Sequence record: OP744025 | DNA: 64,000 nt | Origin: Escherichia phage A5-4 | Strand: one strand, 5' to 3' | In this document: positions 20,010 through 26,085 of the stretch, in pieces | Position numbering within the stretch: position 1 is the stretch's first letter | How the letters are laid out: each line of letters begins with the position of its first letter | Notes under the pieces: model-generated | Databases searched by the model: none | Seen by the model: the letters and a program-made list of their open reading frames with translations, nothing else | What the model was told of the DNA's origin: nothing | Program-made: the position numbers and the translations under genes

Positions 20010-20085
20010 AAATAGCTTTACAACAACGATAAAATCAGTACAATACAAATCAGGCAATAAAGCCAACTAAAGAAAGGTAAAGACC

Positions 20086-20325
20086 ATGCAAACTATTATC
20101 ACTAAATTTCTTCCTCCTACGAATACCCGTGGCGCTCGCATCAAAGCAAAATGTTGGTTGACAGATATCACTATCGCCTATCCGGTAGCCGAGATCAACG
20201 AAGCCCATAAACTGGCGGCAGAAGTGTTAATTACAAAATTGAAGATGACAACAGATATTGATTGGAAAATTGTTGCAAGTGGTGAAACACCGGACGGATC
20301 AGGTTATGCATTTATCATCAAATAA
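20086..20325 (+). CDS. hypothetical small early protein
   Basis: ORF track; AAAGGTAAAG RBS. Confidence 0.55.
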   Translation: MQTIITKFLPPTNTRGARIKAKCWLTDITIAYPVAEINEAHKLAAEVLITKLKMTTDIDWKIVASGETPDGSGYAFIIK

Positions 20326-20893: not shown

Positions 20894-20955
20894 TTGACAA
20901 TAGTTTGTTACTTGATAGAATGTATTTCGTAGGGCGGGGCAATGGAGCAACGCCC
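20894..20955 (+). promoter_or_regulatory. promoter + 5' stem-loop cassette
   Basis: TTGACA, 16 nt, TAGAAT, GTATTTCGTAGGGCGGGG...CGCCC. Confidence 0.55.
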
Positions 20956-22943: not shown

Positions 22944-23150
22944 ATGACTACTTCAATGATCAGATCTTCCGACATTAAAAAGGCTTTATCTGCATTGCGT
23001 TATCATCATAGAATGAAAGTAATCAACGATGAGAGCTATCTAGATTCATCGTTAGAAAGCGATACGTTGGAAGCCATTTCAAAATTATCTGATTTGCATA
23101 AACGCATGACCGAAAGCAACCGATCCGACTTCATAGGGGGCGAAATATGA
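22944..23150 (+). CDS. hypothetical small early protein
   Basis: cassette 22866-22917 upstream. Confidence 0.55.
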   Translation: MTTSMIRSSDIKKALSALRYHHRMKVINDESYLDSSLESDTLEAISKLSDLHKRMTESNRSDFIGGEI

Positions 23151-23407
23151 GCATTGCAATGTTAATCAATACCGTAGAAGAGGCGAAAGCATTAAAGTTA
23201 CGTGTTGAACTGATTGATCAGCCAGGTGGAGATCTCCTTGTACAAATCTATCCCCCAAAGGATGATTCTGGCGCTTATGATTGGTGCTACTCTGACACGT
23301 TCGAACAAGTAGACATTAAAGCAATAACATCATTTATCAATAGGGCTATACTTGAGCAAACGATAGAACTTAACGGGATGTTAAAAACACCCTGGCACAT
23401 TTACTGA
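23147..23407 (+). CDS. hypothetical small early protein
   Basis: ATGA overlap; followed by terminator 23419-23444. Confidence 0.55.
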   Translation: MSIAMLINTVEEAKALKLRVELIDQPGGDLLVQIYPPKDDSGAYDWCYSDTFEQVDIKAITSFINRAILEQTIELNGMLKTPWHIY

Positions 23408-23418
23408 GTTCGACAAAA

Positions 23419-23444
23419 GGGCTTGACTTGTTCAGCCCTTTTTT
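23419..23444 (+). terminator. rho-independent terminator
   Basis: GGGCTTGACTTGTTCAGCCC followed by TTTTTT. Confidence 0.7.
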
Positions 23445-23584
23445 GCTATTCTTATCAAACGGGCGGCACCTGGGAACAGGGGGGAGGTAATCACTGGACG
23501 ACTCCGCTATATAGTGATAGTAAATAGCTATCAATAATCTCCAAAAATAAAATAAAACCTATCGAGTCTTTACAATTCTTTCTA

Positions 23585-23613
23585 TTGACACAACAACCGC
23601 ATTACAGTATTAT
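23585..23613 (+). promoter_or_regulatory. strong sigma70-like promoter with no ORF downstream
   Basis: TTGACA, 17 nt, TATTAT, then ATCTCGTAGGGCAGCG start region; no ORF of 60 aa or more for about 350 nt. Confidence 0.55.
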
Positions 23614-23886
23614 TTATCTCGTAGGGCAGCGAAGCAGTGATGTAAAGTAGTTACTCTATGATGTAAGTTCTGAGAAGTCGAATCCGATAAAGTATCAGAA
23701 AGTTTCTAAGTTTTCGAATCGTCCAGATGAAAAAGGCTGGCAAGTGTTGAGAAAGGGCACGTTGAGTAAGTCCTGAACAGGGGCGCTCCTAGACACCTTC
23801 TACTGAGATTGCGATCGAAGTGTTAAACTGTGAGAAACGATAAAGAGTACCAGGAAAGAAAGAAGTAAAAGAAGTGAAAAAGATTG
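23614..23886 (+). ncRNA. candidate non-coding transcript (promoter-driven, ORF-free)
   Basis: lies between terminator 23419-23444/promoter 23585 and next promoter 23887; only stop-rich frames; no structure or homology evidence. Confidence 0.25.
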
Positions 23887-23916
23887 TTGACACGAAGGTA
23901 AGTTTTGTACTATTAT
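23887..23916 (+). promoter_or_regulatory. sigma70-like early promoter
   Basis: TTGACA, 18 nt, TATTAT, ATCTTGTAGGGCA. Confidence 0.5.
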
Positions 23917-23960
23917 CTATCTTGTAGGGCAAACTTCAAGAACATTAAAAAGGGTACAAA

Positions 23961-24236
23961 ATGTTACAGCTTAACGCCAAATTAGACAAAGAAATCACTG
24001 AGTTTTGGGATATGGTAGTGGCTACAGATGTTGACGGTGTAGCAAGTCCTTACCTCAATAACATTGAGTATCATAATGTTGCAGCTATGAATGCAGAATA
24101 CGCAGAAGAAGGCGGCGCGGATAAGTTTGCTAAAAGCAACGGTTTCACTGATGCTAACGACATGATGCAATCAGTTTTGTGGCAAGCCCAGGAAGATTTT
24201 GAAGAAAAAACTCTTGAATTCGCCAGACGTTCATAA
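23961..24236 (+). CDS. hypothetical small early protein
   Basis: promoter 23887-23916 upstream. Confidence 0.55.
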   Translation: MLQLNAKLDKEITEFWDMVVATDVDGVASPYLNNIEYHNVAAMNAEYAEEGGADKFAKSNGFTDANDMMQSVLWQAQEDFEEKTLEFARRS

Positions 24237-24291
24237 TAGAATAATCAAACGGGCCGAAAGGCCCACTAATTGACCTAACAGGATTAACATC

Positions 24292-24561
24292 ATGAATCGC
24301 ATCGACCAGCTTAAAGTAGTTCAGCATATGGCTTACCGTATCCTTGAAGTTCAGAAAGGGAGCAAAAAAGAAGTATGTGAGAAGGCTTATAAGGTATTCA
24401 GCCACAAAGCTGATGATTGGAAGTTGCAGAAAGTAAAAAAGGCCGATATCCTGGGATACCTTGAAGAAGAGATCCGCATTGCAGACCAAAAACAGATTCG
24501 TCGTGATGAAGCAGAACATAACCAGGCCTGGCAAGAATGGTTTAAAGGCTACACTAAGTAA
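24292..24561 (+). CDS. hypothetical small early protein
   Basis: ORF track; hairpin 24251-24264 upstream. Confidence 0.5.
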   Translation: MNRIDQLKVVQHMAYRILEVQKGSKKEVCEKAYKVFSHKADDWKLQKVKKADILGYLEEEIRIADQKQIRRDEAEHNQAWQEWFKGYTK

Positions 24562-25131: not shown

Positions 25132-25153
25132 GGCCGCAATAGCGGCCTTTTCT
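25132..25153 (+). terminator. rho-independent terminator
   Basis: GGCCGC-AATA-GCGGCC followed by TTTTCT. Confidence 0.7.
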
Positions 25154-25664: not shown

Positions 25665-26085
25665 ATTGCCAGAGTATGGAGGTGGCGCGACCGTAGGGAG
25701 CGACACTATAAAACGAGTATACCCCTCCTACCGCCCTGCGGTCATCGGTGATAACCGATAACATACTGTTATCTGTTCTCTTCGTTTCCTCGTTTTATAG
25801 TGTCTATATGTAGTAATCTTTTATTCTTTGTCAACAGATTAATTGGCTTATAGACAATTATTTATAGTGATTTATTATGCATAGTTATTGATTATGTATG
25901 CAATAAGGATACAATAAGGATACAGTAGCGGTAGTGTAGCGACGCTGTAAATATCAACAAAGAGAGGCCGTATTTGCCCACAGAATGAACAAGTAAGCAG
26001 GGCGGTACGCCCTTTTGCTAGGTAAAACTCTCTTCTCTCTTCTTTCCCAAATAAATTTTTTCTTGCTTTTATTGCCAGAGTATGG
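25665..26085. repeat. dispersed direct repeats ATTGCCAGAGTATGG (x2) and TTTGCCCACA(A/G)A (x2)
   Basis: copies at 25665 and 26071; TTTGCCCACA motif near 25630 and 25973. Confidence 0.55.
26000..26016 (+). terminator. terminator-like hairpin inside non-coding region
   Basis: GGGCG-GTA-CGCCC followed by TTTT. Confidence 0.45.

Follow-up and report, generated by a model that had tools for sequence, protein, structure and literature searches.

A structured noncoding RNA cassette behind an early promoter of Escherichia phage A5-4, with a core shared by three groups of virulent coliphages

What might a phage encode in a stretch of some 270 nucleotides (nt) that follows a strong promoter and holds no credible open reading frame (ORF)? 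This question is raised by the genome of Escherichia phage A5-4, a Vequintavirinae (rV5-like) coliphage, of which we analysed 64,000 nt (sequence record OP744025; hereafter the window). A sequence-only reading had marked positions 23585-23886, between one promoter and the next, as a candidate small RNA (sRNA) or leader. That proposal is supported by a conserved core, compensatory changes in base pairs, a bias towards the transcribed strand and the lack of any conserved reading frame, and we hold with high confidence that the interval is an untranslated, multi-domain structured RNA cassette of ~265 nt, representing a real, conserved and structured noncoding element. An 86-nt core is probably its functional unit. 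Beyond what had been proposed, our analysis delimited this core (23716-23801), revealed its mobility across families, and showed the cassette to be an insertion without counterpart in ordinary rV5-like phages. The locus is ~99% identical to that of Escherichia phage A7_1.

Using blastn against 50,697 phage records, we identified 12 that carry the core. The whole region is present in four close relatives (A7_1, A73, UPEC06 and LTH01), whilst a piece of 86-88 nt was found in unannotated intergenic DNA of the Rtp-type Drexlerviridae Rtp, ZL19, BUCT-XGG-1 and PH1062, and of the Seuratvirus phages (Queuovirinae) SA80RD, SLUR75 and WildeMaa. An exact-protein look-up of the downstream gene added six further assemblies with the core, all of Vequintavirinae type. 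Conservation, a check suggested by the sequence-only reading, hence extends well past close relatives: across these three unrelated groups identity to the window is 85-92% over the core, compared with 30-53% over the 5' part of the leader and 20-37% over its 3' part. The first downstream genes are unrelated among the three groups, and an all-against-all BLASTP comparison of their neighbourhoods found no common protein, only translations of the core itself. The placement of the RNA is the same throughout: each carrier has it on the operon strand, 50-110 nt downstream of a strong early promoter, and no intrinsic terminator follows, the core beginning ~95 nt (window), ~50 nt (Rtp) or ~110 nt (Seuratvirus) past the predicted transcription start.

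In each of the three groups the element is missing from close relatives, and genome comparison therefore points to an accessory, horizontally exchanged 'RNA moron'. For Vequintavirinae, a homolog of the downstream protein occurs in 125 records and the RNA in four; rV5-type relatives without it have a single promoter at the place of promoter P2 of the window, directly after the terminator region, and in AlexBoehm the conserved post-terminator sequence leads straight to that single promoter. The core model likewise found no match when run on an unverified Dhillonvirus record and on three Vequintavirus relatives of rV5 type. Rtp's downstream early genes are present in 106 Drexlerviridae records, four of which have the core. 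In AHP24, a single promoter (AATAGCACTTTTTGCTAAAGACA...TATAGT) precedes the gene, whilst Rtp-type phages have an AHP24-like promoter, the RNA, and then a duplicate of that promoter. Seuratvirus phage SLUR76 shares its promoter and start sequence (tcaaaggaaag) with the carriers of its group and continues with a 30-nt leader without the RNA; in SA80RD, SLUR75 and WildeMaa the RNA is inserted right behind this start sequence, giving a 5' untranslated region (UTR) of ~270 nt. A second, duplicated resident promoter accordingly separates RNA and gene in two of the three groups.

Searches further afield added no carriers. Pattern scans, run on IMG/VR, on metagenomes of JGI and on genomes of GTDB, returned only Rtp itself and chance matches in coding DNA, blastn against PLSDB plasmids gave no match, and neither the core nor the whole leader matched any of 5,426 E. 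coli genomes, even at E <= 10. An origin in, or mimicry of, host RNA was rejected, as resemblances to 16S rRNA, 4.5S RNA and rrn boxC span at most 10 nt and are not conserved across groups.

We next consider structure, where compensatory base-pair changes were observed both in the core and in a separate module 5' of it, in agreement with the structured RNA originally suspected. For the core we propose four helices, P1, P1b, P2 and P3 (Table 1), and across nine distinct sequences 95.1% of the cells in these helices form standard pairs, compared with 35-51% when partners are slid by 1-3 columns. Helix P1 displays switches between A-U and G-C, both between groups and inside Drexlerviridae, whilst helix P3 has undergone C-G to U-A and G-C to C-G changes with pairing always kept. 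The loop of helix P3, compared in the phage copies and in the six further assemblies reached through the downstream protein, reads G-A-A-N-A, with C, A, U or G at the fourth base and the other four fixed. On the minus strand, pairing in the core falls from 95.1% to 79.0%; the structure is strand-specific because of its G.U pairs, and the plus strand is the one that the promoters transcribe. Model R1, built for the core, scored 111.9 bits in the window and found a single copy there.

Towards the edges of the core the groups differ. The invariant tail CACCUUCU is predicted in Seuratvirus to close a four-way junction with GGAAGGUG, and elsewhere it could pair with the P1b loop region or with various purine segments. 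A closing helix common to all groups, or a tRNA-like cloverleaf, was rejected, being predicted for Seuratvirus alone, with a different partner of CACCUUCU in Drexlerviridae and Vequintavirinae. We also discarded a pairing of UCAG in the window with CUGA after the core, as helix H2 of the 5' module includes this UCAG. Between Drexlerviridae and Seuratvirus, covariation is seen in one more hairpin, which lies 3' of the core and has a common 7-bp bulged design.

The structure of the 5' module is better supported than that of the core. In an alignment of Vequintavirinae, Seuratvirus and one Salmonella 7-11-like phage, 97.2% of cells are paired (slid controls, 22-44%; minus strand, 90.7%), and changes on both sides with pairing kept were seen in 9 of 18 pairs. 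Model R2, representing this module, scored 102.6 bits in the window, and in Salmonella phage SE131 it scored 62 bits for an independent copy. Furthermore, a single-sequence centroid fold of the 266-nt leader recovered H2/Ha of the module together with P1 and P3 of the core. As SE131 has the module followed by unrelated, unannotated sequence without the core, the two parts are separable. The arrangement in these 7-11-like Grimontviridae (SE131, MG873442.1 positions 2-1979; pSal-SNUABM-01) is a promoter and the 5' module, then ~800 nt with neither an annotated gene nor the core, all within a wholly unannotated stretch of ~2 kb; these ~800 nt may represent a second noncoding payload that uses this platform.

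To what extent could the region be translated? The claim that it has no ORF stands insofar as no credible one exists, although the accompanying limit of fewer than 10 amino acids (aa) for the longest peptide was slightly too strict: from ~23620 to 23886 on the plus strand, the longest start-initiated peptides have 12 aa (GTG at 23830) and 10 aa (GTG at 23744), and the longest initiated by ATG has 7 aa. A 17-aa GTG ORF at 23874 extends into the next promoter, and a 21-aa TTG ORF at 23585 begins within the -35 box, upstream of the transcript. A small protein gene was ruled out by comparison of homologs, across which no reading frame is conserved. Specifically, SLUR75 and WildeMaa have a 1-nt insertion amid otherwise invariant core sequence, which shifts all frames, and the stop codons of the plus strand in the core differ from copy to copy; in SLUR75 the insertion falls in the P1b loop, where an indel is evidently tolerated. 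A probe of concatenated core translations matched no called protein among 5.8 billion. Given this indel and the shifting stops, the ORFs annotated over the element in UPEC06 and PH1062, and over the 3' tail in A7_1, are very probably artefacts, and these spurious annotations merit correction.

The borders of the cassette proved to be as first described, with a near-consensus promoter P1, a plausible terminator upstream of it and the next promoter at 23887 (Table 1). A hairpin homologous to that terminator is also found in AlexBoehm, which has no RNA cassette. The start-region motif was correctly regarded as common to several cassettes: TATCNCGTAGGGCR stands directly behind six promoter-like sites (at 20923, 22142, 22895, 23615, 23918 and 25185), and its nine matches compare with 3.3 expected, a number reached in 0 of 100 shuffles. 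This shared motif makes promoter P1 a regular member of the phage's early-promoter family, within a 20-28 kb region that has 36 promoter-like sites (19.3 +/- 4.0 in shuffles). Transcription probably starts near 23620, judging by the spacing to the -10 box, and the region behind promoter P1 is presumably transcribed. Between 23620 and the next gene we found no intrinsic terminator on the plus strand, and the same holds for the other two carrier groups; canonical plus-strand intrinsic terminators further downstream are few, at chance level. The leader consists of 63% purines and 14% C, and has a polypurine tract at its 3' end. A similar A/G-rich tract lies ahead of TTGACA in Rtp and in 7-11-like Salmonella phages, and the tract may be the upstream A-rich part of promoter P2.

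Table 1. Features of the RNA cassette and its borders in the window
Feature	Position	Strand	Description
Upstream terminator	23419-23444	+	Hairpin, ~-15.3 kcal/mol, then UUUUUU; ends the preceding cassette (ORF 23147-23407)
Promoter P1	23585-23613	+	Sigma-70-type early promoter; TTGACA (23585-23590)-N17-TATTAT (23608-23613); 11/12 consensus match
Initial-transcribed motif	23615-23628	+	TATCTCGTAGGGCA; start-region motif family; predicted transcription start ~23620
5' module	23621-23715	+	95 nt, two stem-loop domains; covariation (RNAalifold, pair counts)
Helix H2 (5' module)	23668-23673 with 23695-23700	+	RNAalifold and centroid fold
Helix Ha (5' module)	23677-23680 with 23685-23688	+	RNAalifold and centroid fold
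Core	23716-23801	+	86 nt; helices P1, P1b, P2 and P3
Helix P1 (core)	23723-23726 with 23737-23740	+	Compensatory changes
Helix P1b (core)	23744-23748 with 23756-23760	+	Invariant
Helix P2 (core)	23764-23767 with 23785-23788	+	Invariant
Helix P3 (core)	23770-23774 with 23780-23784	+	Compensatory changes; GAACA pentaloop 23775-23779
3' part	23802-23886	+	Poorly conserved; purine-rich tract ~23846-23880 adjoining promoter P2; no intrinsic terminator
Promoter P2	23887-23916	+	Resident promoter of the next cassette; TTGACA-N18-TATTAT; then start motif 23918-23931 and ORF 23961-24236

Does the element belong to a known class of RNA? It fails membership in every family tested, and its closest counterparts are the early-leader RNAs put, nut, P4 CI and P1 C4. 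A search with Rfam 15, whose families include riboswitches, ribozymes, tRNA, 6S, Y RNA, C4/CI RNA and CRISPR repeats, found no match at gathering score over the whole window, and at E <= 10 over 23400-24000 only chance-level matches (best E 0.24, to a Drosophila small nucleolar RNA model), such that the covariance-model check proposed for this locus yielded nothing beyond noise. ARAGORN detected 0 tRNA genes in the window and there is no conserved 3' CCA, in keeping with the earlier failure to draw a tRNA cloverleaf. Our literature searches turned up no published description of this element.

The boxB of phage lambda has a GNR(N)A pentaloop, GAAAA in nutR and GAAGA in nutL. This shape is present in helix P3, a 5-bp G+C-rich stem with a GAANA loop in which only the fourth base varies, and local matches of model R1 to this sub-structure (model positions 52-70) in a 7-kb lambda segment fell only on the annotated nutL and nutR, with E values of 2-5 that are not significant. 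A conserved boxA across groups was not found: the boxA-like segment reads CGCUCCUA in the window, CGCUCCAA in SA80RD, AAACUCCCA in Rtp and GGCCUCCAA in SLUR75, and exact CGCUCUUA occurs in UPEC06-type copies only. The element also differs from nut in its order, hairpin and then boxA-like segment, with that segment forming the 3' strand of helix P2, and in its carriers, which are virulent, non-lambdoid phages. The neighbourhoods of the three groups share no protein that could be an arginine-rich, N-like partner, whole genomes not having been searched for one.

The put RNAs are structured and protein-independent, lie 0-270 nt from the transcription start, have hairpins that can fold during transcription and use host machinery only (PMC9378689). 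Like put of HK022, the element follows closely on an early promoter, is encoded on the strand of the operon and apparently needs no phage protein. However, put has ~70 nt in two adjacent stem-loops and is confined to lambdoid phages, whereas here an 86-nt core of four helices is joined by a separate 95-nt module, which has two stem-loop domains as in put, yet is longer and not homologous. Moreover, put RNAs bind the zinc-binding domain of the RNA polymerase beta' subunit and suppress pausing and termination in cis, whilst the element has few terminators downstream. A search of the complete HK022 genome with models R1 and R2, filters being disabled, returned only scattered matches at E 0.3-10, none of them in the early PL/PR region.

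Further comparisons are with the CI RNA of phage P4, the C4 RNA of phages P1 and P7, the stable RNAs C and D of T4 and phage tRNAs, which are structured early RNAs without terminators of their own, freed by host RNases. The P4 CI and P1 C4 type of layout (promoter, structured RNA, next cassette) resembles that found here, but the RNAs of P4 and P1 belong to temperate elements and target the operon that encodes them, and the element has no match to the Rfam C4 family. RNA anti-CRISPRs, pseudo-ToxI antitoxin mimics and phage tRNAs that replace cleaved host tRNAs serve as decoys or substitutes against host systems. Such RNAs are early-expressed and, like the element described here, accessory and patchy in distribution; unlike them, the core has no CRISPR-repeat resemblance, tandem repeats or tRNA features. 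A preprint presents a phage tRNA-Tyr as an RNA counter-defence (bioRxiv 10.1101/2023.03.15.532788). By analogy, the element could also work as an RNA decoy in the manner of an RNA anti-CRISPR or pseudo-ToxI.

As for its mode of spread, conserved early-promoter sequences flank exchangeable units in the promoter-stem-loop (PeSL) cassettes that shuffle genes in T4-type phages, and probably mediate insertion by recombination. Copies of a native promoter similarly flank the cassette in the window and in Rtp-type phages, although what it carries is no protein gene but a conserved structured RNA, and this cargo crosses family boundaries. It is set apart from Hfq-type trans-acting sRNAs, which have their own Rho-independent terminator and U-tail, by having neither, and from a generic riboswitch with its expression platform by the lack of a terminator after the core, by unrelated downstream genes and by the promoter intervening in two groups.

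The carriers share E. coli as host but no accompanying phage protein, and on this ground we consider it rather likely that the element acts through an E. coli host factor. As to how, our tentative preference is for a decoy RNA acting in trans. Such an RNA would be produced in bulk during the first minutes of infection, folding hairpin by hairpin as it is transcribed, and host RNases would trim it out of the read-through transcript, as with terminator-less phage tRNA genes. The 5' module might then serve as a platform for stability or processing, and the core would be the payload, titrating a host protein by binding it as a decoy with sequence specificity. The target would likely be a defence or RNA-metabolism factor of some strains only, which would explain the patchy, accessory distribution. 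That distribution, like that of anti-defence genes, is consistent with a decoy, as are the layout in two groups, where the RNA forms its own promoter-driven unit ahead of a second promoter, the reuse of the 5' module with another payload in 7-11-like phages, and the little need for antitermination where downstream intrinsic terminators are at chance level.

A number of observations weigh against a structured decoy RNA of this kind. There is no terminator or evident 3' end after the element in any group, which is unusual for a trans-acting sRNA and fits an action in cis equally well. The closing helix of the core is unlike between groups, and helices P1b and P2 are without variation, such that covariation neither supports nor contradicts them; for both reasons the architecture is only partly backed by covariation. 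The sample of core sequences is small, ~10 distinct ones from three clades, such that the covariation statistics can be read as indicative but not as conclusive, and thermodynamic z-scores are ordinary (-0.9 to +2.1), fold stability lending no support.

The RNA might instead act in cis as a read-through element, similar to put of HK022 or to the nut sites of lambda and rrn operons, with the nascent core, by virtue of its boxB-shaped helix P3 and its invariant junctions, binding the RNA polymerase that transcribes it or recruiting Nus factors, and transcription from promoter P1 resisting pausing, Rho and terminators across the early cassettes. We regard this as a serious, if rather doubtful, possibility. 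It would account for the constant position on the operon strand close behind a strong early promoter, which is comparable to that of put RNAs (PMC9378689) and in Drexlerviridae and Seuratvirus marks the very start of the operon, as well as for the lack of any intrinsic terminator between element and genes, for a portability in which host factors suffice, for the boxB shape of helix P3 with its non-significant lambda matches on nutL and nutR, and for the C-poor leader. Yet neither model matches the HK022 early region, no N-like protein emerged from the neighbourhood comparison, and exact boxA is limited to UPEC06-type copies, in a segment that also serves as the 3' strand of helix P2. Nor is a need for such activity evident, considering that downstream plus-strand terminators are at chance level, that close relatives express the same operons without the element, and that an unmodified promoter P2 stands between element and genes in two groups. 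That same promoter, bypassing the element, speaks against a riboswitch-like or protein-responsive cis regulator in which the core is an aptamer and the pyrimidine tail CACCUUCU switches purine partners. Invariant junctions with covarying helices are aptamer-like, the tail has two possible partners, the P1b loop region and a purine motif upstream, and in Seuratvirus the element forms a true 5' UTR with no intervening promoter; nevertheless, no terminator or helix sequestering a Shine-Dalgarno sequence lies beside a regulated gene, in Seuratvirus the start codon is at least ~75 nt away from the element, the genes downstream are not related to one another and no Rfam riboswitch matches, making such regulation unlikely.

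Less probable still is a role at the level of DNA or linked to replication, as an accessory origin with an R-loop primer or as a single-strand initiation or protein-binding site. Although the element sits in divergent promoter regions upstream of replication-gene operons in Drexlerviridae and Seuratvirus, and its transcript is purine-rich with a 3' polypurine tract, the purine tract also occurs ahead of other promoters, relatives replicate without the element and no plasmid carries it, and the compensatory changes and G.U pairs are indicative of a single strand with strand-specific folding instead of a duplex site. We give very little credence to an absence of function, whereby recently transferred promoter-proximal DNA would look conserved from recency alone. 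The family is indeed small, with core sequences close to one another and of ordinary thermodynamic stability, but within the same alignable leader the flanks have diverged far more than the core, the stem of helix P3 has changed at several positions with its pairing always kept, its loop is free at position 4 and fixed at positions 1, 2, 3 and 5, and the RNA was placed independently behind native promoters of three phage groups.

Structured early RNAs encoded by phages are already known; what is unusual here is one noncoding core in three phage families. It is conceivable, though we would not press the point, that the element is the first protein-free, cross-family mobile 'RNA moron' of virulent coliphages, exchanged between Vequintavirinae, Drexlerviridae and Queuovirinae like anti-defence genes, constituting a new class of structured RNA made early, and serving either as a decoy against a strain-specific factor or to reprogramme RNA polymerase without a phage protein. 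Accessory early regions have been mined for anti-defence and host-takeover proteins, whilst noncoding cargo is almost never considered, and yet this element is under stronger sequence constraint than the neighbouring small genes. Its independent placement in three families that share only their host, combined with its absence from most relatives, is the signature that a useful, portable, RNA-only anti-host function would leave. Natural pairs of carrier and non-carrier are culturable, with WildeMaa (Bas23) or SA80RD set against SLUR76, and Rtp against AHP24-type phages. If the proposal is true, the element would rank as a new decoy made of RNA or as a new modifier of transcription that works without protein, and would justify systematic covariance-model searches of phage intergenic regions.

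Several further observations were made in the surroundings of the cassette. The ~55 nt directly after the upstream terminator (23445-23500; gctattcttatcaaacgggcggcacctgggaacaggggggagg..aatcac) are kept in AlexBoehm, which is otherwise diverged here, and may represent a micro-ORF or else one more small noncoding element that is conserved; the UPEC06 record has a 36-aa ORF annotated across the counterpart of this segment. G+C-rich hairpins follow plus-strand early genes at 24248-24267, 24471-24487, 25132-25147, 25999-26013 and 26630-26650, with their U-tracts on the minus strand, such that they score as terminators of antisense transcription and not of the genes' own strand. At 30176-30195 the plus-strand early block ends in AAACCGCCCGAAGGCGGTTT, a perfect bidirectional terminator that has a T-run on each strand, and the promoter-like sites past it are mostly on the minus strand.

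Among the encoded proteins, an early protein at ~20071-20320 (plus strand) has ~35% identity over 63 aa (E 9e-9) to a Seuratvirus early protein (VOG5306) whose gene is on the minus strand, which is a second sign of early-cargo exchange between these phage groups. The closest homolog of the 91-aa downstream protein outside Vequintavirinae (58.6%) belongs to Escherichia virus TH11, a Dhillonvirus with a 45-kb record flagged UNVERIFIED (MT446389.1), and reflects either cross-family transfer or an assembly chimera. The same protein is matched, at the identity of E. coli rV5-like phages, by 17 records named 'Campylobacter phage' (e.g. MG065653.1, MG065635.1 and MG065672.1), those among the matches listed being mostly 135-143 kb in length; these records look mislabelled or contaminated. 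Finally, the record of UPEC06 labels its homolog of window ORF 24292-24561 (QUL77437.1) 'DNA translocase FtsK', an implausible name for an early protein of 89 aa.

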